The translations under genes and the position numbers were made by a program. The notes beneath the pieces were generated by a model. The model was not told the origin of the DNA. It searched no databases and was given only the letters and a program-made list of their open reading frames with translations. DNA of 64,000 nucleotides. Source: a virus (taxonomy: Duplodnaviria; Caudoviricetes). Each line of letters begins with the position of its first letter. The first letter of the stretch is position 1. The stretch spans positions 489-64,488 of IMG/VR virus record IMGVR_UViG_3300036823_000091. One strand, written 5' to 3'. Of the stretch, positions 10,195 to 32,144 are shown in pieces.

Positions 10195-10256
10195 AAAAAA
10201 GGTGCTCTCTCCAGAACTATCCAGAGAAAACACCTGATGCTTTAAGCATGGTCTAA
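10195..10256 (-). terminator. Intrinsic terminator preceded by the AGAY-stem-loop-CRGG motif (copy C)
   Basis: TTAGAC C ATGC-TTAAA-GCAT CAGGTGTTTTCTC...GAGAGAGCACC TTTTTT. Confidence 0.7.
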
Positions 10257-10263
10257 GTGTTAA

Positions 10264-10814
10264 TTATTTCTTCTTTGCATCCTCTATAGCTTTTTCTTCA
10301 TCTTCTTGCACTATAGTGTAGAATGCTATCCACTCATTGAATTTTGTGTTACCTATCTCCTTTAGCATTTTGTCAGGATCTACGCGCTTCATGTCTTTTG
10401 CTAAGCGGAAAGAGAACCTTCTACGATCGTCGGATCTGAGTCTTTTTTTTCTTCTTCAAGCTTTATATTGAGTCCACTCTGCTTGATCGCTTGTGTTGCT
10501 ATTGCTACAAGCGGCCTAACGTTCTTGGCTAGCAATGGCTGCAAGAAACCGTTGCTCCAAATCGGTCCTCCATCAGGATCATCCGCATTCCTTACACTGG
10601 CAATAAGCATTTTCGCCATAAGCTTTTTCTGATCGGTGTTGCCATCCTTATCACTACAGCTATTCAGAATATTTCCTGCTGTATCGGCATCCAATTCTCG
10701 AACGACCAAGTGAACGCCTTTTCCTTGTAGTGTCTTGGGTAAGCTGCTCTCTGGAATTGGAGATTCCTCCAGAACGTCATCCATCCAAAGTGTTCTAATT
10801 TTATCGGTGTCCAT
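10264..10814 (-). CDS. Tail assembly chaperone G/GT with programmed -1 frameshift
   Basis: G frame is 10401-10814. Slippery GAA AAA AAA G at about 10442-10451. The -1 frame is open to 10264 and encodes a T-like ..KFNEWIAFY.. segment. Confidence 0.85.
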
Positions 10815-10856
10815 TGATATCTCCCTACATTTAATTTCGATCATGATCAATAATTG

Positions 10857-11498
10857 CTATGAAGCAATAAAGTAGATTGCTCCATCGCTTGTAAAACTTA
10901 GATCCTCACTAGTAAGATCTTTTTCTGATATCTTGATGCTATCATCCTTCATGAGTGCAAAGCATTCATATCTTTGTTGTGCATTCCTCCCATTATAGAG
11001 GGATAGAAGCAGTCTTTGACTAAGATAGCCGAGATATGATGTATCAATCCACCATTTACCTAAACTGACATCACTATCACCTAATGTGGCTATTTTCGTT
11101 TTCCAAGGCACAGGTGGATTTGTGAATACTGTTGAGTCCATTACATCTAATTGTGTTTTGATGTCTACGCTCTTAGCATCGCCTATGAATGCGAGTGCCA
11201 TGTATTTTCCGCTTACACGGGCTGACGGTGTGCCACCTGTAACAGCACTGGCAAATGTGATCATGCCTCCAACGTACTGCACCGTATAGGTAGAGGGATT
11301 GGCAGTAGTCCAGGTGCTACCATCAGGAGCAGTTTGAACCGTCAAGGCTACATCAGGGTCCCAATAGCGATGGATGTCCGTTTCTGATAATGAGAAATGG
11401 ATATGATCTCCACTATCTGTTAAGACAAGATTGGTAAAGGTGATACTTGGTTGTACAGCAAGCCAAATGCCTGCTAAGTATCCTGGTATTGCTGTCAT
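10857..11498 (-). CDS. Second tail-tube-like protein with N-terminal insertion
   Basis: C-terminal half aligns by eye with 11514-11927 (KSV.IK..D..D.T...WK.KI..L.D). Confidence 0.6.
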   Translation of the reverse strand: MTAIPGYLAGIWLAVQPSITFTNLVLTDSGDHIHFSLSETDIHRYWDPDVALTVQTAPDGSTWTTANPSTYTVQYVGGMITFASAVTGGTPSARVSGKYMALAFIGDAKSVDIKTQLDVMDSTVFTNPPVPWKTKIATLGDSDVSLGKWWIDTSYLGYLSQRLLLSLYNGRNAQQRYECFALMKDDSIKISEKDLTSEDLSFTSDGAIYFIAS

Positions 11499-11513
11499 AT
11501 CTCTTTACCTCTC

Positions 11514-11927
11514 TTACAGCGTTCCAGACACAATTGCTCCGGTTCCCTCAAGATCGAATGACACGTTTTGTTCACTTTTCACGTCAATCTTGATACCTTC
11601 ACTTTTTACCAGTACTGTACCTGAGTACTTGGGTTTGCCAGTTCCTAGTCCAAGTGGAGCAACAAGCCAAGCTGCACTCGTTCCAGGATTAGTGATGATA
11701 TTGGCTTGTAGAGCCGCTTGTTCTGCATCAGTCATATCTAGATTGCCATCAAATGACATTGTGTAGTCAGCTAGACCGCCTATCTTCTTTTTCCATTGAC
11801 CGTCTGCAAGAGCTGTAATATCAAGAATGTCATTGCCTATCTTGATATTGACACTCTTAATACCTGTTATAGTTGTAGGTGTTGGTCCTATTTGGATAAT
11901 TGCTATATATCCAGGCTGTGCTGTCAT
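11514..11927 (-). CDS. Major tail tube protein
   Basis: 137 aa after the tail terminator. Motifs WKKKIGGLADYTMSFDG and SFDLEGTG. Confidence 0.8.
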   Translation of the reverse strand: MTAQPGYIAIIQIGPTPTTITGIKSVNIKIGNDILDITALADGQWKKKIGGLADYTMSFDGNLDMTDAEQAALQANIITNPGTSAAWLVAPLGLGTGKPKYSGTVLVKSEGIKIDVKSEQNVSFDLEGTGAIVSGTL

Positions 11928-11932
11928 GTGCC

Positions 11933-12355
11933 TTACTCCTCACTATAGAGCATATATTGAACGAGTCCATGTAACGTCAACCCGTCCGGGTCCGGTAAAA
12001 ATTTGCTTGAATCATACATAGTTGATACATGATCTTGTGTTGTTAGATTTAGATGTACTTGATCTAACAGTTGATTTAATCTAGCTAAAATCATTTGTGC
12101 ATTTTTGTTTCCTTTTGCTCTACTCCATATATGAATAGTGAACGTTACATCATATCCTCTTCTACCTAGTGTATTGTTCGGTTTTTCTACAATGTCACCT
12201 ATGGTTAGATAATCGAATGGCTGATTTTCTGGTACAGCCATATCGTCAAACACACCAGTTATGCCTAAACTAGTAAGAGTAGCATCAAGCACATCTCCAG
12301 GTACAAGAAGTGCTGATACTGCTGTTTGTATCTCACTTGACGCTGTTTGTACCAT
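11933..12355 (-). CDS. Tail terminator (DUF3168-like)
   Basis: VFDD..PE..PFDYLTIG..TIHIWS..DPDG.T.HG pattern and gene position. Confidence 0.8.
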   Translation of the reverse strand: MVQTASSEIQTAVSALLVPGDVLDATLTSLGITGVFDDMAVPENQPFDYLTIGDIVEKPNNTLGRRGYDVTFTIHIWSRAKGNKNAQMILARLNQLLDQVHLNLTTQDHVSTMYDSSKFLPDPDGLTLHGLVQYMLYSEE

Positions 12356-12572
12356 TTGGCACCTCTGAACACTGGCATTTTGCTAGCTGGTTAAGCTTTA
12401 CTGCTAGGAATTCCCAAGTTTCCCTCTTCAGGCTTGCATCGATAACAAATGATGATTTCCTATACCCGCAGCTTGCACAGAGAGTGAGAATGTATTCAGA
12501 TCTTGAGACAATGAGTAGTTTAGGAGTGAGAGTAAGAAAAGTCTCACCTACTTGGATGCTATTTCTTTTCAT
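12333..12572 (-). CDS. Small hypothetical protein with CxxC
   Basis: Overlapping start/stop coupling with both neighbours. Confidence 0.45.
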   Translation of the reverse strand: MKRNSIQVGETFLTLTPKLLIVSRSEYILTLCASCGYRKSSFVIDASLKRETWEFLAVKLNQLAKCQCSEVPNGTNSVK

Positions 12573-12922: not shown

Positions 12923-12924
12923 GT

Positions 12925-13293: not shown

Positions 13294-13306
13294 AAATCAC
13301 GCCTTT

Positions 13307-18369: not shown

Positions 18370-20933
18370 GATAATTTTGCCTCCATTAAACGTCTATATT
18401 CTTGTAACGACGATAACGCGGGTCGATTTTCCTTAGCTGATTTGGTGCTCTCTTCTTTTTGTCGAGTGTAATCACCCTCATCCCTTTGCGGAATTCGTGT
18501 TTGGGTTGCAGTGTCTTGATATAGTTCTCTTTTTGCCTTTTCACTCTTTGCCTCATAAAGTGCTTCAATCTCCTTATCTGGCATAGTTGAGAGATAACTT
18601 TGAATATCGTTGAGGATTGCATCAATGTTCGATTTTTCTGAAGCATATTGCTCATCTCCAATAGAGAATGAATATCGGTCATCACCAACACAAAGCCATA
18701 ATTCATTGAAAGAGAGATCAAGAGCAGGAATATCATTTATTGGCATAGGATCATCAGGATCAATGTAAGCTAGAGTGATATGGGGTTGGTAGTCAAAATT
18801 GCTAGCAATAGTGATATTTGATGCTTCAAGCTGTTTTACTAAATTTGCTCTCCAATCTTGCAAGCCACTGATATTGACGGCAGCCCACACTGGAGAGAGT
18901 CCATCACTTTGATCAGAAGGACTGAAGCGACCGACTCCACTTGTTGTGCCTTCTAATGGAGCTGCTTCAGAGGCATAACCAGCTAGCAGTTTCTTGAGAG
19001 TGGGAATATTGAGATCAATCTCGTTTTTATCCCCAAGGAAAGCTAGAGTAATGTGAAGGTCTTCAGCGGGCTCTCCATCAGGGATAGCAAGCTGCTTAGA
19101 TACCTTTGGATCAATGAAGAGTGCAATCATCACTCCAGTATGCTCATTGTCCTTTACGGCTCTCTGAATGCCATTGTGAGACTTACCACTATCACCATTA
19201 GAAGTATTGTCATCTCTATTGTCTGAAGAATGAGCATCTTTTTCACGTTGTGCTGCTACGTCTCTAGCATGCCTACTTGCAAGCAAAGCTACACCGAACG
19301 CTGCAGCAAGAGTTGCAAATCCCCATCCTGAAACATGAGATGCATCAACCTCATCAGGGATGTACAAAGTGTGAGCTTGGCAACAGCAGTATTTATGGCA
19401 ATCATCTGGAGTACTACAGCCATTAGGGAATGTGTCATCAATCCCAACCATCACGCCATCATTCTCCATGCAGAAGTCGCATGCATCAGGAGCACACTTC
19501 CAAGTCTTGTAGTTTGCATCTTGACTTGATTTTCGATAGCGGCTCTTTCCTGCCTGATCCTCCTGTTGTTGTGGTTTTCCTGGAGTCGGTTTCTTTGGAG
19601 GTACGGAGTCAACGATTTGAGCAGGCGGCAAGTTGAGAGGCTCAGGAACCGCAGGAGGTGGAGCTGCAGGCATGGTCAAGCTCTGCTCAGCATACTTATC
19701 AAAGTCTTCCTGTCTTACCAAGATCCCACCCAAGCGATAGACTTTACCATTCTTGTTGACAGGTAAAGCAAGTTGCTTTTGTGCATCGCTTTGCATCAAA
19801 AGTCCACTTTCCCACAATATGTTGATTTGATCTATTTGCGCCTGTCTTTTTGCTTGATACAATTCTTGTAGTACTTCAATATCTGCTGTGTCATATGTGT
19901 AATATGCACCCATTTGCTTGAGATCTTTGTACATCGGCACAAGCCACATATTTATGTGATCTCTAAATCTGTCCATCTTGGGTAGAACATTATCGGTATA
20001 GAGAGATAATTTAGCTTCTTTCGCATTAGCAAAAGTCTTACCAGCACTGTCCCCAACCAACTCAGGAGCAATGTCAAAGATGCTTGCAATATCACGCGTG
20101 TTGAGCTCACGTGACTCTAGCCAATCAAGCTCATATGGGCTCATAGACATCTGTTGCCACGTCATATCACCCTCTAGAAGAAGTGGCATACCTGAATTGC
20201 GCTTACCTGAATACCTACGTCGTAATTCTTCCTTCATCTGACTTCTCTGCTCTGTTGTCAAGTATCCTTTAGCAAAGAAAACAGAGGCAGGTTTGCCAGC
20301 ATTTTGCATGAGAGCGGTATTCCAAGCATTTCCCTCATTTTGCTGATCAATGAGGTTAGAGGCAACTTCAATAGGGGAAAGACCATAAAAATCATTATCG
20401 TAAGCAGGAAACTTCAAGTGTAAAACTTCATTTACATCAAAGTCTTGAGCAACAGAAGTACCATATCCATAAATATATCCATCAATATCTTTTTCACCTA
20501 TAACGATTTTTGTTCGATCAGGTCGCAATGTCCATAATTCTACAGGTGGTTCATTGGGATTAATACAATTTGCATAGATATAGGAATTGCCTGCTATATG
20601 CCAAAAACCAAAGATTTGCTCAATAAATGCACCTGATGCATGCTTGGGATTAGGTTTCTTCCAAAGGTCTAATAGCGCATGAGTCTTGATTTCTCTCGAC
20701 ATTGTTTCATCAGTATAGAGCTTCCACTTAATACCAGAGGCTACACCTGAGATCTTGTTGATGCAGTTGTAGACCGTGCCATTGCGCCTATAGCCCTCTC
20801 TTGTAAAAGCTTGATAGGATTTATCACTCCAGACAGGTTGTCCAGGTGAAAAGAATTGTGTTGCTACAGCATAGGAAGGATCATTCTTTGTCTGTCTGTT
20901 GAAGATGTTTTTTGTCCAGCTCACTATTCCCAT
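18366..20933 (-). CDS. Portal protein (HK97 family) fused to a MuF-like Cys motif and a 2H phosphoesterase domain
   Basis: Portal motifs (LWTLRPDR, YGLSPI, IASIFDIAPELVG), KTW..D.C..C..DG..F..G..HKYCCC, and two HITL motifs. Confidence 0.88.
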   Translation of the reverse strand: MGIVSWTKNIFNRQTKNDPSYAVATQFFSPGQPVWSDKSYQAFTREGYRRNGTVYNCINKISGVASGIKWKLYTDETMSREIKTHALLDLWKKPNPKHASGAFIEQIFGFWHIAGNSYIYANCINPNEPPVELWTLRPDRTKIVIGEKDIDGYIYGYGTSVAQDFDVNEVLHLKFPAYDNDFYGLSPIEVASNLIDQQNEGNAWNTALMQNAGKPASVFFAKGYLTTEQRSQMKEELRRRYSGKRNSGMPLLLEGDMTWQQMSMSPYELDWLESRELNTRDIASIFDIAPELVGDSAGKTFANAKEAKLSLYTDNVLPKMDRFRDHINMWLVPMYKDLKQMGAYYTYDTADIEVLQELYQAKRQAQIDQINILWESGLLMQSDAQKQLALPVNKNGKVYRLGGILVRQEDFDKYAEQSLTMPAAPPPAVPEPLNLPPAQIVDSVPPKKPTPGKPQQQEDQAGKSRYRKSSQDANYKTWKCAPDACDFCMENDGVMVGIDDTFPNGCSTPDDCHKYCCCQAHTLYIPDEVDASHVSGWGFATLAAAFGVALLASRHARDVAAQREKDAHSSDNRDDNTSNGDSGKSHNGIQRAVKDNEHTGVMIALFIDPKVSKQLAIPDGEPAEDLHITLAFLGDKNEIDLNIPTLKKLLAGYASEAAPLEGTTSGVGRFSPSDQSDGLSPVWAAVNISGLQDWRANLVKQLEASNITIASNFDYQPHITLAYIDPDDPMPINDIPALDLSFNELWLCVGDDRYSFSIGDEQYASEKSNIDAILNDIQSYLSTMPDKEIEALYEAKSEKAKRELYQDTATQTRIPQRDEGDYTRQKEESTKSAKENRPALSSLQEYRRLMEAKLS

Positions 20934-22621
20934 CCATCCACCCCACTTTCAAACCAATTACCCTCATCCTCATTGATAGATTTATGATTCGCTTGGAACA
21001 CAGACGGGTATTGAGTACCATCTGCTACTTCTTGTTCCATGGAAGTATCACCATCATCATCCATAGACCAAATCATAGAACCGGATGGATTTACGATATC
21101 ATCAGCAGCCATGGAAAAAGTGTCAACAATATCATCATGAGCTGCCATGGGGAATAAAAGCAACTCTGTTTCCATGTCATTCTGATAAGAGACACCTTTA
21201 CGGAAATAGATTTTTCCATTTTCCATCCATATAGATGCCATAGAGGCACGTGCCTTTTTATCTCCCTTGCCAGTAGTATTATATTCACGACATGGAACAC
21301 CTTCAATAAGAGCTTGCTGGACTAATGCTACTTGGTAGGCGGTGCTTTCAATTTTAAAATAGATACCTCTATATTGAAGATTTAAAAGACGCAATTGCTT
21401 TAATTGATCAGGATTATTAATGTGACCTCGAATCATGTCAATGAGAACAAGGTCACGTTCTGGAGTAACGGCCCATATGGAGAAGACGGTAAAATCAGCG
21501 GTTTGCTTTTTACTAATTGCCAAGTCAACCGTTGAAAATATCCTACATCGCTCTTTGAGGATTGAACGTGTTCCCTCTGGAGTCTCTAGGATGTATGCCT
21601 CTTCAGTTTCAGTAAAGTACCGGAACCATTTCTTATTAAATTGCGTGCCGCCTGAAGGAGCTGGTGACTGTTGGTATTGAGCTGCATACCCAATACTGCC
21701 AAGATCTCTCTTGTATCGTGCAATTGTCTCCTGATTAAAGCGTTCAGGACATAATAATTCGCCTTCTTTAGTTCTGGGATCTTCCCAACCTATGGAGGTG
21801 AAACACTTTCTTGCAGGTTCAAATTCAGCAGGAAGATTAAGGTGTACCCAATCAGGCCTTTCAGACAAGATAATACCTGAAACATCCTCTTCATGAATGC
21901 GTTGTCCTATAACCATCATTTTGTCATGGTTAGCATCATTCATGCGGTTCGACCATGTTTCTCTAAACCACCGTGTTGCTGCATCTCTATCTGCACTGCC
22001 ATATGCCTCATCAGCAGCATGAGCATCATCTATAATTAAAACACTGCCACCATGTCCTGTAGCACTTGCCGCAACAGAGGTAACCATTTGATACCCTAAC
22101 TTATCATTCATAAAAAATCGTTTTGCGTTTTGTTCTTTACTTAGATCAAAGTCAGGTTCTCTAGTAAATTCCATCAACCCCGTATCGGTCGCCAATGTAA
22201 AACTTTGTCCATATCTCTCCTGAAACCATTGTGAGTCAATAAGGTTACGTTTCTTGAGATTGTCCCTAGTAGCTAAATCCAAGCTATAAGAAGCAGAGAG
22301 AAACCTTTCATCAGGTTTTTGCAACCATCCCCACACAGGCCATATGACACTGCATATAGTGCTTTTTGAATGTCTAGGAGGAATATTGATTAATAGAAAC
22401 CGTATTTTCCCTAGTGATAATGCGGTTAAATGTTCACAAATAGCGTCAAGATACCAACTGCCAATAAAAGGTGCAGGATCAACATATTTCCACGCGCCTA
22501 TAACAAATTGCTTGAGATCACGTCTCATCTCTTCAGCTTCAGCAATCATTAGGAGAGTATCAGCAAGTTTTTGATTCTGAGTAGCTGGAATAGAGGGAAC
22601 TGCATATCTAGGCATGAGCAT
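20924..22621 (-). CDS. terL: Terminase large subunit
   Basis: INIPPRHSKS (Walker A), LIIDD (Walker B), QRIHE.D, HDDIVD nuclease motif. Confidence 0.95.
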   Translation of the reverse strand: MLMPRYAVPSIPATQNQKLADTLLMIAEAEEMRRDLKQFVIGAWKYVDPAPFIGSWYLDAICEHLTALSLGKIRFLLINIPPRHSKSTICSVIWPVWGWLQKPDERFLSASYSLDLATRDNLKKRNLIDSQWFQERYGQSFTLATDTGLMEFTREPDFDLSKEQNAKRFFMNDKLGYQMVTSVAASATGHGGSVLIIDDAHAADEAYGSADRDAATRWFRETWSNRMNDANHDKMMVIGQRIHEEDVSGIILSERPDWVHLNLPAEFEPARKCFTSIGWEDPRTKEGELLCPERFNQETIARYKRDLGSIGYAAQYQQSPAPSGGTQFNKKWFRYFTETEEAYILETPEGTRSILKERCRIFSTVDLAISKKQTADFTVFSIWAVTPERDLVLIDMIRGHINNPDQLKQLRLLNLQYRGIYFKIESTAYQVALVQQALIEGVPCREYNTTGKGDKKARASMASIWMENGKIYFRKGVSYQNDMETELLLFPMAAHDDIVDTFSMAADDIVNPSGSMIWSMDDDGDTSMEQEVADGTQYPSVFQANHKSINEDEGNWFESGVDGWE

Positions 22622-23216
22622 TGCCCTCCTTCAATCGGAGGGCAAACGACTTCATTTCTGCAAGCTGAGCAGGTGCTAGGGAACGGGTATCAATGGTCAA
22701 AGTAGTGGAATTGACTAATTGAATATTAGTATTAATTTCTGTTTCTGGTGATTGGTATTCAGAGAGATTCGCTTTAGCGTAGGCAATGGCTAGAGTATCG
22801 CTGTACTTACGAACCATCACAGGGTTCGTCTTACGCATGAGAGGCTTTCCACGCTTGTCGTACTTTTGATCTCCATTGTCATCAGTAGCAGGTTCTTCTT
22901 CATAGACAATCTGCCCTTGGCTTACCATCGGTTCTAGCCACCCGATAACACCACGTCGGTAAATCGAGCTACGAGCTATATCCTTTGTTCGTTCTAGAGA
23001 CTCGTCCCACTGCTTAGCAAATTTAGGATCTGCTTCACGCCACTTGTATACAGCCTCACGAGACATATCAATATGCTCACAAGCAAAAGAGACATTAGGA
23101 TCTTCACGAAGAAATGCTATAAACTTTTCCTTCGCTTCCTTACGTGCTTGCGCTCTGCTTAACGCACGTGTATGATTGTCAACTTTGTCAACTTGCAAGC
23201 TTGTCTCTTGTCTCAA
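22608..23216 (-). CDS. terS: Terminase small subunit
   Basis: N-terminal HTH (VSFAC...SREAVYKWR..DPKF), KYSDTL motif, directly upstream of terL. Confidence 0.75.
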   Translation of the reverse strand: MRQETSLQVDKVDNHTRALSRAQARKEAKEKFIAFLREDPNVSFACEHIDMSREAVYKWREADPKFAKQWDESLERTKDIARSSIYRRGVIGWLEPMVSQGQIVYEEEPATDDNGDQKYDKRGKPLMRKTNPVMVRKYSDTLAIAYAKANLSEYQSPETEINTNIQLVNSTTLTIDTRSLAPAQLAEMKSFALRLKEGNAHA

Positions 23217-23451: not shown

Positions 23452-23462
23452 ATATCCCTCTT

Positions 23463-23708: not shown

Positions 23709-23733
23709 ATATTCTCTCCTGCTTCAGAACAAT

Positions 23734-23800
23734 AAAAACCGGACATCTTCCCTCGTTCATATTGATTGAAGGAAAATGCCCGGGCGTTGCGCCTATCTTG
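23734..23800 (-). terminator. Intrinsic terminator preceded by the AGAY-stem-loop-CRGG motif (copy B)
   Basis: CAAGAT A GGCG-CAA-CGCC CGGGCATTTTCCTTC...GAGGGAAGATGTCCGG TTTTT. Confidence 0.7.
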
Positions 23801-23827
23801 GCATTGAAATATTCTATTGTGTAAGAG

Positions 23828-24014: not shown

Positions 24015-24104
24015 ATAATCTGAGTCCTATTCCAGAACACCGGCAGTCATACGACTACCCCTGAACAGAGTTCTCAAAATGTTCCGAATATACTCACTAC
24101 ATCA

Positions 24105-24133
24105 ACTATAGCACACACCCAAAACATAATCAA
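24105..24133 (-). promoter_or_regulatory. Sigma70-type promoter for the ncRNA and late operon
   Basis: TTGATT-17 nt-TATAGT with extended -10 TG. Confidence 0.6.
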
Positions 24134-24158
24134 GTGTCAAGAGGACAAGTGGACAAAA

Positions 24159-24966: not shown

Positions 24967-24980
24967 CTCTATGACCTTTC

Positions 24981-25714: not shown

Positions 25715-26138
25715 TTCCTTCCATCTTCACTGCAAAATCTTTCATCTTATCCTTGCAATAGCTTTTAACCATGTCAATGATCTCACTATTTTTTAGCTTT
25801 TTCCCTTCTAAGTCCTCGCATGCTTGTTTAATACTCATCCATTCGTCAACGGGAAAGTTTAGATAGAGATCACACGAACCTCTAAGCTTAGGCGTGATAG
25901 TTACTCTCTTGAATTCGTGATCATCAGGATGAGACTCTACTTTACACTCAAGATACATTTCTGGAAATTTTCCATCTGGGAAAAGGGGTACCTCATCTGA
26001 CTCTACCGTAAAATTCACCACTTCAGTTAAAAACCCGTGTTTGTTATCCTGTTCAGCTTTTACAAGTTTATAGCCTTCTGGAAGCATGAGCACATCTTTG
26101 ATTGTTAATAGGTCTAGTGGCAAAATTGCTCTACCCAT
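25683..26138 (-). CDS. Hypothetical protein
   Basis: Coupled ORF in operon. Confidence 0.55.
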   Translation of the reverse strand: MGRAILPLDLLTIKDVLMLPEGYKLVKAEQDNKHGFLTEVVNFTVESDEVPLFPDGKFPEMYLECKVESHPDDHEFKRVTITPKLRGSCDLYLNFPVDEWMSIKQACEDLEGKKLKNSEIIDMVKSYCKDKMKDFAVKMEGNANASNISSN

Positions 26139-26554
26139 TATGTTACATCTCCTTCTTTGCCTGTATATTCCATATTCACTTTAAGCTTATATATTGCCTC
26201 TTCGTACTGCTTCAGGTTTTTCTCTTTCCACTCAATAGAGCTTTTGTAGCTCGCAATATCCTTACGGCATTCTGCTGCTTCAGCTTCATACTCTCTCAAC
26301 TTTTCTTGTTCGTTCTGTCCCCCAAGGATATATTTTCTTGCCCATCCTTCAGGATCTTCTAGGTATGCCTTGATATCCTTGAACACTTGACCTTGTATGA
26401 TGTCTTTGTCAGTTCCCCCATAAGGTACCGTGATTTTCTTGCCATTGGTATCAGGAGAGGATAGGGTAACAGCACATTTTATGGTGTAATCCCCATCGTA
26501 CCAAGACTCATCTTGATCTATGTGTATATCTACTTCAGTTTCTTCTACACTCAT
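26138..26554 (-). CDS. Hypothetical coiled-coil protein
   Basis: Coupled ORF, GAGGAG RBS. Confidence 0.55.
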   Translation of the reverse strand: MSVEETEVDIHIDQDESWYDGDYTIKCAVTLSSPDTNGKKITVPYGGTDKDIIQGQVFKDIKAYLEDPEGWARKYILGGQNEQEKLREYEAEAAECRKDIASYKSSIEWKEKNLKQYEEAIYKLKVNMEYTGKEGDVT

Positions 26555-26555
26555 G

Positions 26556-26792
26556 CTAATTCTCCTCTATCTCTTGCTTCCAGCCACACCAGCATTTATG
26601 TGACTTGGTATGAGTAAATTCATGCCCATTGCTACATTTCAGGTCCTCAGTATGGCGATTTGTATCATGATAGTGATGCTTACCTTCACTATCATAAAAA
26701 GGTGATATAAATACTGCCGTAACCATGCCACCTGGAAGGATATCGATCCGTTCTGGAGCTAATCCTTGCTTCTCACATTCTGGACATTTCAC
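26556..26792 (-). CDS. Small Cys/His-rich protein
   Basis: CPEC..C..GH..CWC. Confidence 0.55.
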   Translation of the reverse strand: MKCPECEKQGLAPERIDILPGGMVTAVFISPFYDSEGKHHYHDTNRHTEDLKCSNGHEFTHTKSHKCWCGWKQEIEEN

Positions 26793-26795
26793 ATC

Positions 26796-27125
26796 TCACC
26801 TCAATATCCATACAAGAACAAGTGGAATAGCAACAATAATCGCAATAGTAGCTACACCAGCAAGAGCAGCCACCATTCTGTAAAAGTGATGAACAGCCAT
26901 CACACTATCAAATGCCTCGTTTAAGCTTATCGGTGATACTGTATCACTAATCAATGCTTTATCAACAGAAGGCACTAATGGAGCAGGATGGTCATTGTAC
27001 TCTTGCCAGATAAGTCCCTCATCTTTGGGCTTGGCTTTGGGCTCATAGCAGACAACGGAATGCTCTTCTTGTTGTGATTCAAGAGACTTCATAAGGGAGA
27101 TGAAAGCTTGATTGCTTTGGCCCAT
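26796..27125 (-). CDS. Hypothetical membrane protein
   Basis: C-terminal hydrophobic helix. Confidence 0.55.
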   Translation of the reverse strand: MGQSNQAFISLMKSLESQQEEHSVVCYEPKAKPKDEGLIWQEYNDHPAPLVPSVDKALISDTVSPISLNEAFDSVMAVHHFYRMVAALAGVATIAIIVAIPLVLVWILR

Positions 27126-27126
27126 A

Positions 27127-27363
27127 CTATTTCCTCACACCTGTCTTAGCCTTTATCTGCTTTACCATCTCCTCTGAAACATCTCTTGCTATTTCTTTTC
27201 TCATATTGCGAACTTCACTCTTTACCTCATGTCTAATCGTGTATTGAAATCCCTCCATAGCCTTGTTAACAGTCTTCTGTATCATCTCTTGAATGGCTTC
27301 CAAGAGAGCATCCATACCCGCAGGCTCTTTTTCAGACCGTTCTTCTTTTACTTCGTAATCCAT
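27127..27363 (-). CDS. Hypothetical protein
   Basis: GAGGA RBS. Confidence 0.5.
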   Translation of the reverse strand: MDYEVKEERSEKEPAGMDALLEAIQEMIQKTVNKAMEGFQYTIRHEVKSEVRNMRKEIARDVSEEMVKQIKAKTGVRK

Positions 27364-27368
27364 GATAT

Positions 27369-28394
27369 TTATCCTCTTAAGCCCGTAATACTAACAAGAC
27401 TCCAGCCGCTTTTGAGATTGATACAGCGTTTTTGGGCAAACTCCTCTACAGTCTTTCTTGATTCGTTTTCCAGCACCATACTACTGTGCTCACGTACATC
27501 CCAAGAGTTTTTCATCACATTGCATGATATTCTAAAGTTTCCAGCATGAGAAGCTGTGAACACTCTACCAAAGTGCTGCAAAACTGCTCTACCTATCACA
27601 TCAAAAAGTGCTGTACTCTCCTCTTGCTTCTTGGGAGATTTGAGCTTATCAATGAGTTCAGAAAGGCTTTGTGCTCTTGCCCATGTTGCATCATCAGGCT
27701 CAGCAGGATACCAACCTTTGAAAATATCGATATCATGCATATCTACAATGTCATCAGTGTGTCTGTGCATACCTATACATTCTTTGCTCTTAAAGATGAT
27801 ATAACGAGCTTGATGAGCAACATGGCATCTAACTACAATATCTCCATTAGTGATTACTGCTGGTGAATAGTATCCTTGTACTTTTCTTGCCTCTTCAATA
27901 GCATCAACAAAGGAGTGAGTCTTCTGCTTCTTGACAGTCTCTTTATTGATGAAATCCTCATAGACACGATTTAGTAGAGGATATGCCCTATCCCCAAGTT
28001 CTATCTCCCTTGGAAATGTCTCTACATACTCAAGAAGCAGTGCGTACATGTCTTTTACGCAATCATCACTGTTTACAGGAGGTTTGGAGTGTTTGTTTTC
28101 TACCTTGCCTAGTACAGTTTCTTTGAATGCTCTCTTGCCTTCTTCAGTCAAATGAACATTTATCGCAATGCTCTGATTTTGCGCCTCTCGTATCTTTTGT
28201 GTGAACTGCTTTCCGTCCATGTATATACCTGATTGATTTGGGCGTTCCTCTGCTTTGATAGTGCAACATCCTTCACTGCCACTTATAGGATAGGAGAAAT
28301 CCCACTTAGGAGCTTCAAACAGCACTCTAGAGCCATTAGCTAACAGTACTTCACCTTTGAGAGGCCCGTATGGAGAGAGATTAGTTATTGCCAT
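27369..28394 (-). CDS. Hypothetical protein
   Basis: Long ORF, AGGAGG RBS before MAITNL. Confidence 0.6.
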   Translation of the reverse strand: MAITNLSPYGPLKGEVLLANGSRVLFEAPKWDFSYPISGSEGCCTIKAEERPNQSGIYMDGKQFTQKIREAQNQSIAINVHLTEEGKRAFKETVLGKVENKHSKPPVNSDDCVKDMYALLLEYVETFPREIELGDRAYPLLNRVYEDFINKETVKKQKTHSFVDAIEEARKVQGYYSPAVITNGDIVVRCHVAHQARYIIFKSKECIGMHRHTDDIVDMHDIDIFKGWYPAEPDDATWARAQSLSELIDKLKSPKKQEESTALFDVIGRAVLQHFGRVFTASHAGNFRISCNVMKNSWDVREHSSMVLENESRKTVEEFAQKRCINLKSGWSLVSITGLRG

Positions 28395-28614
28395 GTGTCT
28401 CCTCCTTGAAGAGAACAATCTTGTCTTCAGGCTTGACCTGTATCATCTTCCCACAGCCATTAGGGCAGGGAACAATCTGCTCTGTAAATTGCACGGGAGG
28501 ATTTTTGCCAGCATTCCTAACAGCTTGTCCAAGATTTTCAAACAACGTAGCAAATGCATTTACTATTGACACATCTTGCCATTTGTGGCACTTTTCGCAT
28601 ATATATAGGAGCAT
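28381..28614 (-). CDS. Zinc-ribbon protein
   Basis: CEKC...CPNGCG. Confidence 0.55.
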   Translation of the reverse strand: MLLYICEKCHKWQDVSIVNAFATLFENLGQAVRNAGKNPPVQFTEQIVPCPNGCGKMIQVKPEDKIVLFKEETHGNN

Positions 28615-29265
28615 TTAGTCTCCTCCATCAAAGAAACTAAAGCTTTGACCACTTCCACCTCTAGTAGTTCTTGATGTTGCATGAGCTACATTATCAAACG
28701 TTCGTGATGTATCACTGCTAGCATAGCTCATCGTGTTACCTTGCGATATCCCTAAATCACCTGCGATAGACCATGCATCCTGATCAGCTCCAAGGTAAAC
28801 GAATGTCCAGTTTTTAGCAGCTTCTCTTTCCTTAATGCCAGTGATAACGTGCTCTTTCTTGTATTCCTTTGATGCATTTTCGTAGCCATCGGTCATGATA
28901 ATCATTATCACGGGATTTTCACCGTATGGTTTGTCAGGAGTACTCCAGCTCTCTTTAGCAACTGAGAAGCCATGACCTATAGCATCATAGAGAGCTGTAG
29001 TATCCATAGGAGTGTAATTCTTGTCTGTAAGTTGAGGGACTTCCTCCAGAGACAAGTTAGCAAACAGAGGTCTTACCTTTGTACCGAACTTGATAGCAGT
29101 TAGGCTATACTTGTTCCCATCTCCTTTGAGCTTCTCAACATAGGAGTTAAATCCTCCACGTACATCCTTAGCTGCTGTGGACATCGAACCTGACTCATCG
29201 ATGATGAAAATCACGTTCGTTTGCTTGACTGCTGGAGTCTTCTTTGTCTTTTTAGTTGTTGCCAT
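28615..29265 (-). CDS. von Willebrand factor A domain protein
   Basis: MIDAS motif DESGSM, T.LYDAIG, TDG.EN.S.EY. Confidence 0.9.
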   Translation of the reverse strand: MATTKKTKKTPAVKQTNVIFIIDESGSMSTAAKDVRGGFNSYVEKLKGDGNKYSLTAIKFGTKVRPLFANLSLEEVPQLTDKNYTPMDTTALYDAIGHGFSVAKESWSTPDKPYGENPVIMIIMTDGYENASKEYKKEHVITGIKEREAAKNWTFVYLGADQDAWSIAGDLGISQGNTMSYASSDTSRTFDNVAHATSRTTRGGSGQSFSFFDGGD

Positions 29266-29266
29266 G

Positions 29267-29704
29267 TTACCAGTTACCTTCCTTTATCTTTTTGTCTAGC
29301 TGTACATTCTGCTCACGTAACATCCTATCAGCTAGCAAGACTTCTGGTTTTTCGCCTACTGTGTAATCCCCTACTACCTCTTCATAAGTTGCAATAAATA
29401 CATCTGGTTTACATGGATACATCTCTTGTTTAATTCCTGTAATCACCCAATCACCAGGACAGACGATGTGTCCACCTTCTAGAGTGTCAATCCAGCCATG
29501 ATTATGCATTCGTATCTTGCAATGCTCACACAAACGGCCTCCATCCCCGTCTGGAGTGCGATAGTATCGAACAACTTTTCCCTCGCTCATGAAACCCGTT
29601 CCCTCGTCTGAAGCAATCGGGTAACAGGCGTCTTGTGGATGGTCTCCATTCTTGAACCATTGATTTGCCTCTATAACAATTGGCTTTTTGCGAAATTTGG
29701 GCAT
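29267..29704 (-). CDS. Conserved phage protein (TLEG..PGDW..YPCKPD family)
   Basis: KFRKKP..IEA.QW and TLEG/PGDW motifs. Confidence 0.75.
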   Translation of the reverse strand: MPKFRKKPIVIEANQWFKNGDHPQDACYPIASDEGTGFMSEGKVVRYYRTPDGDGGRLCEHCKIRMHNHGWIDTLEGGHIVCPGDWVITGIKQEMYPCKPDVFIATYEEVVGDYTVGEKPEVLLADRMLREQNVQLDKKIKEGNW

Positions 29705-29705
29705 A

Positions 29706-29903
29706 CTATTCCTCTTCCTCTAATCTCTCTATCAACTCCTCTAGTGCATCAGCTTTAGCCTCACGCCTTGATGCTATTATCGCCAGTTCACTTATACGTT
29801 GTGCATAGACAGACTTAAGCGCCTGTTCTAGCGTTTCACTGGCTTTCCTGTTCCACTTGGCTTTTAGCTCTTCAGCAATCTTAATCACACGCTGTTTTTC
29901 CAT
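29706..29903 (-). CDS. Hypothetical protein
   Basis: AAGGAG RBS. Confidence 0.5.
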   Translation of the reverse strand: MEKQRVIKIAEELKAKWNRKASETLEQALKSVYAQRISELAIIASRREAKADALEELIERLEEEE

Positions 29904-30084
29904 ACATCTCCTTCAAAACGCTTGCAAAAGCTGCATCATACTCTTCTTGACTCGCATGCTTGCTTGGGACACCCAACATAGAAGGAGTAATAGCAAACAT
30001 GCTCACAATGTCTCTGGTGTTCTGATCTCTTGCTTCCTGAAATGCTTTGTCCTGTTCGGATAACTCAAGAGGTTTCCATTCCAT
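29881..30084 (-). CDS. Hypothetical protein
   Basis: TGATG-coupled start MEWKPL. Confidence 0.45.
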   Translation of the reverse strand: MEWKPLELSEQDKAFQEARDQNTRDIVSMFAITPSMLGVPSKHASQEEYDAAFASVLKEMYGKTACD

Positions 30085-30254
30085 CAATGTGCTCCGAACA
30101 ATACAAAGATACCTAATAGAGCTATAAGTGCCAAGAGGCCATATATTATAGATCTCCATACATTACGAGCCACTATTGCACTAATAGCAATATCTCCTGA
30201 ACGAATGAGAACAAACAGGAGAAGGATGAATGTAGGTTGTAGTATTGTTGACAT
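30084..30254 (-). CDS. Small two-TM protein (56 aa, below the ORF-track cutoff)
   Basis: MSTILQPTFILLLFVLIRSG...IIYGLLALIALLGIFVLFGAH, coupled to the next ORF. Confidence 0.5.
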   Translation of the reverse strand: MSTILQPTFILLLFVLIRSGDIAISAIVARNVWRSIIYGLLALIALLGIFVLFGAH

Positions 30255-30266
30255 GTTGTTCCCTTT

Positions 30267-30359
30267 CTAAGGCGTATCAATCCATTTCAAGATAACAATG
30301 GTTATGCAAATGAGCCCTATGACAATCACAGTAGCCCAGGACCCATCAAGAGCAGGCAT
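30267..30359 (-). CDS. 30-aa single-TM peptide
   Basis: MPALDGSWATVIVIGLICITIVILKWIDTP fills a gap in the operon. Confidence 0.35.
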   Translation of the reverse strand: MPALDGSWATVIVIGLICITIVILKWIDTP

Positions 30360-30362
30360 ATG

Positions 30363-30755
30363 CTAGTCCATCCATTCAATATGCGCATTGGGTTGACCTG
30401 AAGCATCAGGATAACAATGGATTTGCCGTAGCTGATCAATGCTCTTGTAGTACCCATTGGTTTCAGTCTTGAGCCAGAACAAGTGACAGGTGCCATCGGG
30501 CCATTGAACGCCCACTGCGATTTCACCAGTCCCAGAGATTCCGGTGATATCAGTAGACCTCACAAGCTTGAAGCGTGAAAATGTCTCTTTAGGCTGTACA
30601 GTGTTATCGTTCATGGTATGTGCTACCTTTCTTTGAGCCTGAACAACATTAATAGAAGACTCTTCACCAAAGCTCATGGTGATATTTTGACCTTCCCCTA
30701 TGCACTGCCCTATCACATGCCCTCTATTTGTGATGTTAAATTTGTTGCTATCCAT
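30363..30755 (-). CDS. Conserved phage hypothetical protein
   Basis: F.LVR..D.TGISGTG..A.GVQW.DG motif. Confidence 0.65.
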   Translation of the reverse strand: MDSNKFNITNRGHVIGQCIGEGQNITMSFGEESSINVVQAQRKVAHTMNDNTVQPKETFSRFKLVRSTDITGISGTGEIAVGVQWPDGTCHLFWLKTETNGYYKSIDQLRQIHCYPDASGQPNAHIEWMD

Positions 30756-30763
30756 TACTTACC

Positions 30764-31510
30764 TCATTCTGGATAATTGGCTCTAACTCGTCCAATTACC
30801 TCATCATAATACTCTTGATCGAACTTCCATCCTTGTGCTTCAGAAAAGCTATCCACACGATAAGACAACTCATCTAGGCTATAAGAGTGAGCCATTCCGT
30901 ATCTATCTTGAAGCCACTCAACAAAAGCTGTCAAAGCTTCTGCTGGATAGATGTTATTTCCGCGTGTCGATCTCTGGAGGTCCTGGATTTGCTTTAACTT
31001 ATCAATTGAGAGGTCGAGATCAGTGTCGTTAATGGTGGTCTTGATACGGTTATCGTCTAGCTTCTTGAGGTCAGGTTTTTGTTGTCCACAGCAGGGACAA
31101 CACTCTACTACTTCAGCATGAGCCACTATATCCATAACAGGAGCATACGCCCACAGAATCGCTCTAGACCAATCTTTAACATCAATGTCAATCACTCTCA
31201 CATGATAGATATGATCAATGCTTTCACCTGTATCAGCATCAGTGAGCTTAGTAGATGCTCCAATACCACCATCATTCTGGATACGAACTCCGCGGGGTCG
31301 TTTAGGAGGTTCTTGCTCTATTTCTTTTGCGTAACCTTCTAATTTTTGCCCTACTGCCTCTCTTATTTCCTTTGAAGGTAGCGTATCTCCATGATCAATT
31401 ATATATGTCTTTTTGTCTTCCCAATAGCTGATATGCGTCTCCATATCAGGGAAGTCTCTCTTAAGCTTCTCCTCAATGAGCTTTGCTGTATGCTCGTTAT
31501 GCTTGCTCAT
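30764..31510 (-). CDS. Hypothetical protein
   Basis: 248-aa ORF with CPCC. Confidence 0.6.
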   Translation of the reverse strand: MSKHNEHTAKLIEEKLKRDFPDMETHISYWEDKKTYIIDHGDTLPSKEIREAVGQKLEGYAKEIEQEPPKRPRGVRIQNDGGIGASTKLTDADTGESIDHIYHVRVIDIDVKDWSRAILWAYAPVMDIVAHAEVVECCPCCGQQKPDLKKLDDNRIKTTINDTDLDLSIDKLKQIQDLQRSTRGNNIYPAEALTAFVEWLQDRYGMAHSYSLDELSYRVDSFSEAQGWKFDQEYYDEVIGRVRANYPE

Positions 31511-31700
31511 CTATCACTACCTCACCACTTCTCTTGAGTGCATCCTTCAGCTTCTCTTCCCCATCATACACACAAACCTCATCATCTTTGTCTACATACG
31601 CTACTTTCCCCTTCTCGAACACCACGCCTTCATACTCATACTTCTGAAGCTTCCCAAATCCGGTTGGACGTTCAGTGTGAGTGATCTTGATCTGTTTCAT
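31497..31700 (-). CDS. Hypothetical protein
   Basis: GAGGT RBS directly after terminator copy A. Confidence 0.55.
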   Translation of the reverse strand: MKQIKITHTERPTGFGKLQKYEYEGVVFEKGKVAYVDKDDEVCVYDGEEKLKDALKRSGEVVIDEQA

Positions 31701-31714
31701 GAGTTACCTCACAT

Positions 31715-31781
31715 AAAAATAGCATCCCCAAATACCAGCTACACTGGTAAAGAGATGCCTGACGCTTTTCGCGTTGTCTAA
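31715..31781 (-). terminator. Intrinsic terminator preceded by the AGAY-stem-loop-CRGG motif (copy A)
   Basis: TTAGAC A ACGC-GAAAA-GCGT CAGGCATCTC..TACCAG-TGTAG-CTGGTA..GGGATGCT ATTTTT. Confidence 0.7.
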
Positions 31782-31806
31782 GCACTTGTTATTCCGTTGT
31801 TAGTTA

Positions 31807-32082
31807 CTACTTGTCATAATTAGAAGGAGCTGCATAACGCATGTCTTGCCTTCTATTGGGCTTGGCTCTTTTACGTGCCTTGTCTGTTACTGAGAAACCT
31901 TTTGTTCCAAGACGTATCCCGTAACCGTCATCTTGAAATTTAAATTCAATCCTGCCATGTCCACCTGATTGAGCTATTAATTGCTTCTTAGCTTTATAAT
32001 AAGCCCATATCTCTAAATCCTCTTCATCTATCATTTCAGGCATGGATATCTTACTTGTTATGTTATCCATGATTATGTCCAT
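31807..32082 (-). CDS. Small protein with DUF2292/YezD-like core and basic tail, candidate antiterminator
   Basis: GGHGRIEFKFQDDG resembles the DUF2292 G.V.I..QDG pattern (by eye). It has its own promoter and sits just before motif copy A. Confidence 0.5.
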   Translation of the reverse strand: MDIIMDNITSKISMPEMIDEEDLEIWAYYKAKKQLIAQSGGHGRIEFKFQDDGYGIRLGTKGFSVTDKARKRAKPNRRQDMRYAAPSNYDK

Positions 32083-32115
32083 TTTGTATATCTAAAAGGA
32101 CAATGTTATGGAGAT

Positions 32116-32144
32116 AGAGTACCACGTGAACAACACAAAATCAA
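32116..32144 (-). promoter_or_regulatory. Sigma70-type promoter
   Basis: TTGATT-17 nt-TACTCT with extended TG, same -35 as the promoter at 24105-24133. Confidence 0.55.

Follow-up and report, generated by a model that had tools for sequence, protein, structure and literature searches.

A candidate HutP-like antitermination cassette in uncultured soil phages, formed by a small-protein gene and a terminator-overlapping RNA motif

The locus

We analysed a stretch of 64,000 nt from a virus of the class Caudoviricetes (IMG/VR record IMGVR_UViG_3300036823_000091, positions 489 to 64,488), hereafter the window. The features on which the analysis is based are the following, where P1 and P2 are the two helices of the RNA motif described below.

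32141..32177, minus strand: AT-rich hairpin with a T-run, upstream of the small gene, dG -14.8 kcal/mol
31807..32082, minus strand: small gene, an ORF of 91 aa from its first ATG, for which homologs were found (basic C-terminal tail: KARKRAKPNRRQDMRY)
31712..31785, minus strand: motif copy A, with P1 5′ strand GTGCTT (31785-31780), AGAC (31779-31776), spacer A (31775), P2 ACGC/GCGT with loop GAAAA (31774-31762), C (31761) and P1 3′ strand AGGCAT (31760-31755)
31759-31721, minus strand: terminator hairpin of copy A, whose 5′ arm overlaps the P1 3′ strand, with T-run 31720-31712
24105..24133, minus strand: promoter-like site, TTGATT-17-TATAGT with an upstream TG, heading a leader of ~300 nt that ends in copy B
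23730..23805, minus strand: motif copy B, with P1 5′ strand AATGCC (23805-23800), unpaired A (23799), AGAT (23798-23795), spacer A, P2 GGCG/CGCC with loop CAA (23793-23783), C (23782) and GGGCATT common to the terminator hairpin
23783-23739, minus strand: terminator hairpin of copy B, with T-run 23738-23730
20924..23216, minus strand: terS and terL, the first identified genes behind copy B (PHROGs matches)
10192..10261, minus strand: motif copy C, with P1 5′ strand AACACTT (10261-10255), AGAC (10254-10251), spacer C, P2 ATGC/GCAT with loop TTAAA (10249-10237), C (10236) and AGGTGTT common to the terminator hairpin
10235-10200, minus strand: terminator hairpin of copy C, with T-run 10199-10192
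7453..10180, minus strand: tape measure gene behind copy C, with its true start past the terminator at ~10180

The gene context of the three copies was as the first-pass annotation had given it. Copy A begins 21 nt beyond the stop codon of ORF 31807-32082, and this cassette stands first in an 8-kb operon whose genes are mostly unknown; taken by itself, such adjacency could also mean that motif and terminator are the small gene's own 3′ end. Downstream of copy B there are two small ORFs, then terS (22608-23216) and terL (20924-22621), while copy C lies between the frameshift extension of the tail chaperone (stop at 10264) and the tape measure gene. No plausible ORF was found in the ~300-nt leader of copy B and no ORF ends within 100 nt upstream of this copy, so that a trans-acting factor fits better there than ribosome coupling.

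The small gene had also been called promoter-proximal, which stands only in part. Precisely, the nearest minus-strand promoter-like site of the promoter scan is distant (32442-32413), and a scan of the related record L034 gave none directly upstream of the small gene. A closer site in the window, TTCACG-16-TAACAT at 32130-32103, was read by eye; it agrees at 8 of 12 positions and is below the scan threshold. The AT-rich hairpin at 32141..32177 may insulate the cassette from upstream transcription. An integrase at 37786-38778 indicates that the phage is temperate. The window also encodes a sigma-factor homolog (48433-49356), and the motif system therefore need not be the sole regulator of middle and late genes.

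The motif in the window

A search of the window on both strands with the pattern AGAY-N-[4 Watson-Crick bp, loop 3-5]-CRGGY gave exactly 3 matches. They lie on the minus strand at 31779, 23798 and 10254, each merged with a strong terminator; the earlier observation that three minus-strand terminators begin with the same element was thus reproduced. In 300 dinucleotide shuffles of the window the mean count was 0.037 and the maximum 1, with 0/300 reaching 3, a control that is post hoc because the pattern was derived from the same three copies, the independent support being that of the relatives. In each copy CRGG is the start of the 5′ arm of the terminator hairpin, which is followed by the T-run. 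The terminators, with dG of -20.2 (copy A), -26.0 (copy B) and -23.0 kcal/mol (copy C), are three of the four strongest on the minus strand between 0 and 36 kb; the fourth, at 35461-35429, is without the motif.

With a covariance model made from them, the three copies scored 39-46 bits, the next best match in the window reaching 12.9 bits. Outside the motif the copies have almost no common sequence, from which it follows that they are not recent duplicates. The Rfam covariance models gave 0 matches at gathering score over the whole window, and near copies A and B the lowest E-values were 0.87 and 5.8, both for unrelated families.

The small protein and its family

The homologs are 87-88 aa long, which suggests that translation of the small gene really starts at the ATG at 32070 and yields 87 aa. 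The family is very rare, with 7 representatives among 1.84 billion proteins, and its members, 69-91 aa in size, form three subfamilies with 22-37% identity between them. In the AlphaFold model the protein has a helix (16-35), a β-hairpin (strands 38-47 and 52-62; core pLDDT ~90) and a conserved basic C-terminal tail (KARKRAKPNRRQDMRY). The homodimer model scored 0.50 against 0.07 for the best control, with runs agreeing in at least 88% of contacts and pLDDT of at least 71; a score at that mark was reached by 20/30 proteins solved as one-chain pairs and by 1/23 solved as single chains. A dimeric form, with two tails rich in arginine and lysine, is probable. The homolog P0004 (146 aa) is a natural tandem duplication of the domain.

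A PDB search with the model gave no fold match, and no known RNA-binding family or fold was matched in Pfam, PHROGs, NCBIfam or the fold search. The gene family is previously undescribed, and protein family and RNA motif are both new.

Co-occurrence of gene and motif in related phages

We considered 19 related records, a small and partly dependent sample (L054 and L056 were found via the motif pattern, L004 and L005 are near-identical, and 7 of the 10 gene-carrying records belong to one subfamily), in which 10 carry exactly one homolog of the small gene and the same 10 carry the strict motif fused to a terminator, against 0 strict sites on either strand in the 9 records without the gene. The co-occurrence of the motif with homologs of 31807-32082, a check proposed together with the original observation, was in this way positive. 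All 12 strict sites face the same way with respect to transcription, and the hairpin to which each is fused has a dG of -17.7 kcal/mol or lower; in the cassettes the motif starts 5-27 nt past the stop codon of the small gene in every case. The RNA architecture is kept although the proteins of different subfamilies are only 22-37% identical. The carriers are a group of uncultured soil phages.

The genes downstream of the cassette vary between phages, while the small gene and the motif remain together. In G002, G003, G006 and G007 terS/terL are directly behind the cassette, in G008 the order is cassette, ParB-like gene and then terS/terL, and in L002 the cassette precedes a ParB-like gene; the cassette thus leads into terS/terL, directly or after one gene, in 5 of 9 relatives. 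The flanking sequence alone, used as a pattern, matched 32 times in 596 Gb of genomes from bacteria and archaea, and P2 pairing, terminator and gene were absent from all 32; in viral contigs the same pattern gave 9 matches, 7 with P2 pairing, terminator and gene together. Neither gene nor motif was found in G004 and L003, whose terL is 63-74% identical, or in L010-L012, relatives of another operon gene, and the system is therefore dispensable.

Each of the nine relatives has one motif site, the extra copies B and C occurring only in the window phage; G007 is a complete genome (91 kb), G003 and G008 are large but incomplete, and the remaining six, at most 20 kb long, are fragments that could miss copies. 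With single-copy relatives, a regulon-like control through several sites is a reading of this one window.

Structure of the motif

A helix that the first-pass annotation had not described, P1, is formed between CRGGY and the bases 5′ of AGAY. Since P1 competes with the terminator stem, it would act as an antiterminator. Its length is 4-7 bp, with a 4-bp core present in 10/10 distinct copies; in 8 of 11 copies (L002 and L004 type) it is limited to the four core pairs. In a register test 45/60 cells paired in register, against 25-48% with the partner slid, except at a slide of +2 (73%), where the pairing comes from a bulged extension of the helix. Three compensatory changes were seen in P1 (U-A to C-G, G-C to A-U and U-A to C-G), and its G-U pairs argue for an RNA on this strand.

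For P2, the claim of stems that differ and yet all pair held in the window, with three 4-bp Watson-Crick helices, and was extended by covariation in the relatives. Six different 4-bp helices occur among the copies, every pair being Watson-Crick, and in the near-identical L004-type group the sole variable P2 pair is UA (3), CG (2) or AU (1). The loop, of 3-6 nt, varies in sequence (GAAAA, CAA, TTAAA, TTT, TAT, TAA). The compensatory changes in P1 and P2 support an RNA structure.

P1 with P2 is the minimum free energy fold of the nascent RNA in 9/9 copies, and the terminator fold, once complete, exceeds the P1 form in stability by 5-11 kcal/mol, again in 9/9 copies. The default would then be termination, and read-through would need a stabilising factor.

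Proposed mechanism

The gene and the RNA fold overlapping the terminator most likely form a self-contained switch that turns on packaging and structural genes. On balance we favour a HutP-like, self-contained and local (non-processive) antitermination cassette, in which protein family and RNA motif are both new. RNA polymerase would transcribe the small gene first and then the motif, and the nascent RNA would form P1 (4-7 bp) and the P2 hairpin, with the AGAY(N)/C internal loop between them. By default, as the 3′ arm of the terminator emerges, the far more stable terminator stem would displace P1 and transcription would stop. Once the small protein has accumulated, we infer that it would bind the P1/AGAY/P2 junction and keep CRGGY in P1, so that the terminator would lose the base of its stem beside the U-tract and the polymerase would read through. 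In most relatives the single cassette heading the terminase and structural operon could serve as a timer for late genes, and in the window phage two extra motif copies would put the terS/terL-head operon and the tape-measure and tail genes under the same factor. The sequence comparisons give good support to the link between protein and motif and to the antiterminator logic; RNA binding by the protein, read-through as its effect and the timing role are what we infer from them.

The positive feedback suggested earlier does not fit the layout. In fact, the small gene is upstream of terminator A, and read-through does not raise its own transcription; the control is better described as a delay or a feed-forward gate.

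Alternative explanations

A real RNA switch could answer to another effector, that is a host factor, a phage protein (e.g. the partner of the sigma-factor homolog) or a small molecule, with the gene merely a passenger of the cassette. The missing match of the protein to any RNA-binding family or fold, the action of copies B and C far from the small gene and the sigma-factor homolog encoded in the window would all agree with this, but we consider it unlikely, given the perfect co-occurrence (10/10 vs 0/9) across subfamilies of such low identity and a gene-motif pair that stays constant while the downstream genes differ. Moreover, ~12 conserved motif positions, paired or unpaired, are few for a metabolite aptamer, and Rfam gave no match.

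The small protein could instead bind the motif and promote termination, in the manner of TRAP or PyrR, thereby limiting late genes or acting in lysogenic silencing. Linkage and structure apply equally to this reading and the phage is temperate; nevertheless we hold it to be quite unlikely. In TRAP- or PyrR-type attenuators the antiterminator is the favoured default, while here the terminator form is already the more stable one in every copy and termination needs no help; a head gene that only ever blocked its own terminase operon would also make little regulatory sense.

We give little probability to the absence of any switch, with hairpin and AGAY as an inherited 3′-end feature (an mRNA stabiliser, an RNase site or a termination helper). 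The motif is always found with a terminator and the relatives carry a single copy, which closes the mRNA of the small gene at its 3′ end, but compensatory changes have preserved P1, which cannot coexist with the terminator base, and a passive element would need neither property. Likewise against it, copies A, B and C are not recent duplicates and the other strong terminator of the same direction is without the motif.

Leader-peptide attenuation, in which a ribosome stopping 5-27 nt before P1 sets the fold and the protein product is irrelevant, would explain the stop codons near P1 in the cassettes and at copy C; it is highly improbable in view of copy B, with no ORF end within 100 nt upstream, and of a protein conserved as a folded domain (22-37% identity, core pLDDT ~90). 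A palindromic DNA site, bound by a dimeric protein as an operator or activator or serving near terS as a packaging signal, is hardly credible. P2 is indeed an inverted repeat, modelling gave a symmetric dimer for the protein and the site lies just before terS in G002, G003, G006 and G007, but the half-sites of copies A, B and C are completely different within one genome, the G-U pairs of P1 exist only in the RNA of this strand, and 12/12 sites have the same orientation to transcription and the terminator fusion.

Resemblance to DUF2292

For the antitermination cassette, the description of the protein as DUF2292-like was reduced to a sub-threshold resemblance. DUF2292 (PF10055; YezD, and OscA, a 'sulfur starvation response protein') was the sole Pfam family appearing at all, below the cut-off: against a gathering score of 22 bits, 3 of 13 members (P0009, P0010 and the L004 protein) scored 15.7, 13.8 and 13.0 bits at profile positions 14-26, and the window protein had no match even at E up to 10. 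Alignment of the family profile with OscA by hhalign gave 18-20% probability over the same strand as in the Pfam matches, and NCBIfam had no match for the family. The likeness lies in size, in the predicted order of helix and β-hairpin and in the strand G-x-G-x-[IV]-E-[IL]-x-[VF]-[QH]-[DN]-G. The phage motif model run on one Pseudomonas genome with oscA gave nothing at E < 0.1, and the searchable part of the literature establishes no function for DUF2292.

As a tentative and rather doubtful extension, the DUF2292 superfamily (OscA, YezD and a divergent phage branch) might comprise widespread, unrecognised dimeric RNA-binding antiterminators, each paired with a mini-hairpin that has one strand in common with an intrinsic terminator, the phage-recruited branch being a portable late-gene timer of gene plus target. 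If this were true, one phage could build a regulon by copying a ~35-nt motif onto other terminators, as in the window.

Comparison with known antitermination systems

Lambda N is a small phage protein with an arginine-rich segment that recognises an RNA hairpin and, with Nus factors, acts processively from a nut site away from the terminators. The cassette resembles it in pairing a small basic phage protein with an RNA hairpin, and the loops of copy A and L002 read GAAAA(U); it differs in that each target terminator carries its own overlapping motif (12/12 sites), in that the loop is not conserved and in that the basic segment is C-terminal. No match to N was found in Pfam or PHROGs. Membership of the ANTAR group (AmiR, NasR, EutV) requires an ANTAR domain and, on the RNA, a tandem pair of hexaloop hairpins; here Pfam gave no match, and the motif has a single hairpin whose loop (3-6 nt) is not conserved in sequence.

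In the lambda Q system (PR′-6S RNA-tR′; PMC7547250) the late transcript stops at a promoter-close terminator until a phage factor permits read-through. Copy B, at the end of its ~300-nt leader before terS, would follow the same logic, but Q binds promoter DNA and modifies the polymerase processively, whereas here a conserved RNA structure competes with the terminator. No Q-family match (Pfam, PHROGs) was found among the window ORFs scanned, a subset of all.

In the CAT/RAT systems (BglG/SacY/LicT; PMC5393181, PMC12591593) a short RNA hairpin with internal loops overlaps the 5′ arm of the terminator and is stabilised by a small dimeric β-rich domain. The overlap is analogous here, the 3′ strand of the motif being common to the terminator 5′ arm; the differences are a different motif consensus, the phage setting and the fact that no phosphotransferase-system control is implied. 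Pfam gave no CAT or PRD match, and 69-91 aa leave no room for a PRD.

HutP of Bacillus subtilis (hutP-hutH) is, according to PMC12591593, encoded by a promoter-proximal regulator gene, with a terminator between hutP and the controlled genes, and binds RNA to give local read-through; it is a hexamer of ~150 aa per subunit, needs histidine and Mg2+, and has two clusters of NAG triplets as its target. The phage protein is of 69-91 aa with a helix and β-hairpin, its proposed target is P1/internal loop/P2, and no ligand is implied; there was no Pfam match, HutP chains were absent among the fold-search matches listed, and the motif has a single AGAY and no NAG clusters. The likeness to HutP is one of layout and of local action, with the proposed regulator gene followed by the terminator and then by the controlled genes. 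Judged by sequence, mutually exclusive helices, covariation and a linked candidate trans-acting factor, which would act by binding, are all present in the cassette, as would be expected of a protein-dependent terminator/antiterminator switch.

Genome context and motif sites

The window covers nearly the whole of the 64,488-base IMG/VR virus record, for which CheckV estimates a completeness of 74%, and the phage is long-tailed. Read along the minus strand from about 36 kb to position 1, genes and motif-bearing terminators (copies A, B and C) are laid out as follows, the last line giving other genes of the window.

From about 36 kb (-): early genes (DUF5131, DUF488), then the small gene (31807-32082)
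31785-31712 (-): copy A, heading the 31.7-24 kb block in a cassette with the small gene
After the small gene (-): an 8-kb block, mostly of genes without known function
23805-23730 (-): copy B, at the end of a structured leader of about 300 nt without a plausible ORF, 3' of a promoter-like site and before terS
Next (-): terS, terL, portal, protease/scaffold and major capsid protein
Last (-): tail genes, tail chaperone with frameshift extension, tape measure gene
10261-10192 (-): copy C, between the tail chaperone and the tape measure gene
Also in the window: integrase, RecT, a sliding-clamp homolog, ThyX, a transposase and a sigma-factor homolog

The tyrosine-integrase homolog (37786-38778, +) indicates that the phage is probably temperate, and IMG/VR lists the related record G006 as a provirus. 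The 307-aa ORF at 48433-49356 (-) matches a PHROG named 'RNA polymerase sigma factor' (E 2e-17), so the phage may own a second layer of middle/late transcription control. In the portal ORF (18366-20933, -, 855 aa) residues ~580-760 match PHROGs for RNA ligase and head maturation protease, and this C-terminal part looks like a fused extra domain. The 559-aa transposase homolog at 57226-58905 (+; phrog_506, E 1.5e-107) suggests an insertion sequence in the phage genome. Megablast found nothing in the phage collection that matched 23400-32400.

The three motif sites have exactly the sequence given by the first-pass annotation, whose description of the motif was confirmed and extended by a script scan, a covariance model and an additional helix (P1, below). 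We scanned both strands with the strict pattern AGAY-N-[4 Watson-Crick pairs, loop 3-5]-CRGGY and obtained exactly three matches, each of them on the minus strand, a count not attained by any of 300 dinucleotide shuffles (mean 0.037). In each copy a strong hairpin, followed by a T-run, has CRGG at the start of its 5' arm. Four minus-strand hairpin/T-run sites within 0-36 kb reach a dG of at least -19 kcal/mol in strength, and three of them carry the motif. The fourth, the terminator at 35461-35429 (-), dG -19 kcal/mol, 3' of the 147-aa gene 35485-35928, is without the motif and hence outside the proposed regulon.

A covariance model built from copies A-C scored its own copies at 39-46 bits and the next match in the window at 12.9 bits; no Rfam family matched the motif. 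The model R1 was too narrow for the copies of one subfamily of the cassette (L004 type, protein of 69 aa), which scored 9 bits, were missed and were recovered via the protein HMM. Against one Pseudomonas genome with oscA its best hit had E 0.13.

The leader before copy B (23806-24100, -) carries the 13-nt sequence TCAGATTATGGAG twice as a direct repeat (24023-24011 and 23987-23975), with AGAT inside each unit, and a hairpin resembling a tRNA T-arm at 23853-23835, notwithstanding which ARAGORN reported zero tRNA in the whole window. Folded together with copy B and its terminator (23725-24100), the leader has a z of -4.45 against shuffles. This leader may function by itself as a terminated RNA, or may hold additional protein sites.

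An alternative helix and its covariation

In addition to the 4-bp hairpin of the motif (P2), we found a helix absent from the first-pass annotation, P1, formed between the 4-7 bases immediately before AGAY and CRGGY with its following bases.

Copy A (-): P1 GUGCUU/AGGCAU
Copy B (-): P1 AAUGCC/GGCAUU
Copy C (-): P1 AACACUU/AGGUGUU

P1 encloses an asymmetric internal loop (5' AGAY-N, 3' C) and the P2 hairpin. Since the same nucleotides are used by P1 and by the base of the terminator stem, P1 would be an antiterminator. In the nascent RNA, before the 3' arm of the terminator, P1 plus P2 was the minimum-energy fold in all nine distinct copies examined; the complete terminator is 5-11 kcal/mol more stable than the P1 form, and when P1 is held the remaining hairpin is short of 4-6 basal pairs and detached from the U-tract. 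Given that the terminator is the more stable once complete, the default would be termination, and read-through would require something that stabilises P1/P2.

The covariation claimed for the P2 stem holds in the larger set, where six forms occur (ACGC/GCGT, ATGC/GCAT, GGCG/CGCC, TGTG/CACA, CGTG/CACG and AGTG/CACT) and each consists of four Watson-Crick pairs. Within the L004-type group, otherwise almost invariant, the sole variable stem pair is UA (3), CG (2) or AU (1); 9 of 500 shuffles matched the number of cells changed on both sides, and pairing is seen in 97% of cells, versus 32-72% with the partner slid. For P1, a 4-bp core was found in every copy, with compensatory changes at three positions and in-register pairing in 45 of 60 cells, versus 25-48% at other slides except slide +2 (73%), which is due to a bulged helix extension in the L004 type. 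Loop sequences vary, the invariant unpaired bases being A-G-A-Y and the C before RGG.

Linkage of the small gene and the motif in related phages

Relatives were gathered via terL, another gene of the operon, the small protein and the flanks of the motif, several whole records were added, and all 19 records were scanned with the small-protein profile and the strict motif. The proposed co-occurrence was found: the gene was present in 10 of the 19 records and the strict motif in the same ten, of which two (L054, L056) had been found via the motif pattern itself, two (L004, L005) are near-identical and seven belong to one subfamily. Each gene-bearing record (10/10) has exactly one homolog, and all 12 strict sites of these records are fused to a hairpin whose dG is at least as strong as -17.7 kcal/mol. 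Neither strand of the nine records that lack the gene has a strict site. In all cassettes the motif starts 5-27 nt 3' of the stop codon of the small gene, across three protein subfamilies with 22-37% identity between them.

As a control, the flank pattern was run over bacterial and archaeal genomes (596 Gb), where it gave 32 matches, none with P2 pairing, terminator or gene. In viral contigs seven of nine matches had P2 pairing, terminator and gene; the other two lie within coding sequence and were set aside as chance. Searches of viral contigs with single sequences and alignments headed by the window-type or L002-type protein returned nothing new, and terL searches returned, in metagenome contigs, mostly records already found and, in genome contigs, nothing. 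No host or isolate prophage was found in the public collections searched. The public runs listed are three DNA runs from soil metagenomes, one of them perhaps the source, with no RNA run among them.

Each relative has one copy of the motif. Downstream genes were read in six of the nine relatives (G002, G003, G006, G007, G008 and L002): the cassette stands directly before terS-terL in G002, G003, G006 and G007, the last a complete 91-kb genome with terminal repeats, it is followed by a ParB-like gene and then terS-terL in G008, and by a ParB-like gene in L002.

About 300 nt upstream of the cassette, L004 (2547-2580, equal to L005 97-130) contains the canonical tRNA T-arm sequence GGTTCGATTCC, so that it probably has a tRNA gene right before its late-gene cassette. 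Upstream of the small gene, L004 (2810-2845), L032, L034, L056, L007 and L054 share a conserved block, CTCTTGCAT...TA[CT]AGT, which is about 40 nt long and in L004-type cassettes lies some 40 nt ahead of the start codon. TTGCAT-N17-TACAGT before L004-type genes, taken by eye for a promoter, fails the criteria of our sigma-70 scan; the block resembles a promoter and could use a different sigma factor.

The small protein

ORF 31807-32082 codes for 91 aa, and its homologs of 87-88 aa suggest that the true start is the second ATG. Pfam, PHROGs and NCBIfam had no match for the window's protein. The family is very rare: three homologs came from a word-indexed search and seven from a profile search through all 1.84 billion representatives, all without a name or named 'hypothetical protein'.

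In the AlphaFold model (13 sequences; mean pLDDT 76, core ~90) one helix (16-35) precedes a beta-hairpin (strands 38-47, 52-62), and the Arg/Lys-rich tail is disordered. Foldseek found nothing in the PDB at E 0.001 or better, the ESM Atlas gave no usable match, and the best match of a wide VIA-align search, GnsA (Z 4.0, rmsd 3.6, 56 residues), was within the noise range of the tool.

Modelling supports a homodimer, with a score of 0.50 (best control 0.07). Of 30 proteins whose solved structures pair two copies of one chain, 20 reached this mark, as did 1 of the 23 solved with a single chain. Contact agreement between runs was at least 88% and pLDDT at least 71, and the predicted interface is the conserved G-x-G-R-I-E-x-K-x-Q strand. 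A 146-aa homolog (P0004) carries two tandem small-protein domains in a single chain, a duplication consistent with the predicted homodimer.

The protein had been called DUF2292-like. DUF2292 is the sole Pfam family to appear, at 13-15.7 bits (cut-off 22) in three family members and on the same profile strand in all three; the window's own protein is without a match, and hhalign against Pseudomonas OscA gives a probability of 18-20%. We therefore regard the relationship as a reasonable lead, short of established membership.

Interpretation

The simplest reading of the cassette is a local, protein-dependent antitermination system. The protein would stabilise P1/P2, the base of the terminator would be lost, and transcription would read through into the late genes; in the window's phage, control would have spread to three operons through copying of the motif. 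Sequence comparisons largely support the antitermination interpretation, in which the binding and the direction of the effect are predictions. The positive feedback put forward in the first-pass annotation was not borne out: as laid out, the small gene is upstream of its own terminator, which would make the cassette a delay gate.

Five alternatives, taken together, have in our judgement slightly under an even chance. The stabiliser may be another effector; the protein may promote termination; the motif may be a passive element of 3' ends; or ribosome coupling may be at work. A DNA site is hard to reconcile with the G-U pairs in P1, which match RNA of this strand rather than a palindrome in DNA.

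If antitermination is correct, the cassette would be a minimal, portable timer of late genes, made of a gene of ~70-90 codons and ~75 nt of RNA (a motif of ~35 nt plus the terminator). To our knowledge, late-gene control is mostly unknown in phages beyond the lambda, T4 and T7 models. The cassette would also provide a first testable function for a family without annotation, possibly also for the larger DUF2292/OscA/YezD group, and a small orthogonal protein-RNA pair of possible use as a synthetic transcription gate.

Comparison with known systems

Local stabilisation of an antiterminator is a known mechanism in bacterial catabolic operons; the papers searched on phage antitermination hold no description of it for phage late genes. 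More broadly, the literature on phage antitermination, DUF2292 and OscA, largely at the level of titles and abstracts, gives no account of this system, and no DUF2292 paper found there is, by its title, about function. In that literature the protein family and the RNA motif are both undescribed; the kind of switch is already known. CAT, ANTAR and HutP are treated in a 2025 review on RNA-binding antiterminators, in which the word 'phage' does not occur (PMC12591593). The layout of the cassette is like that of hutP and the hut terminator, and its RNA logic is like that of RAT/CAT (PMC12591593). From lambda N the cassette differs in mechanism, because each terminator needs an overlapping motif of its own.
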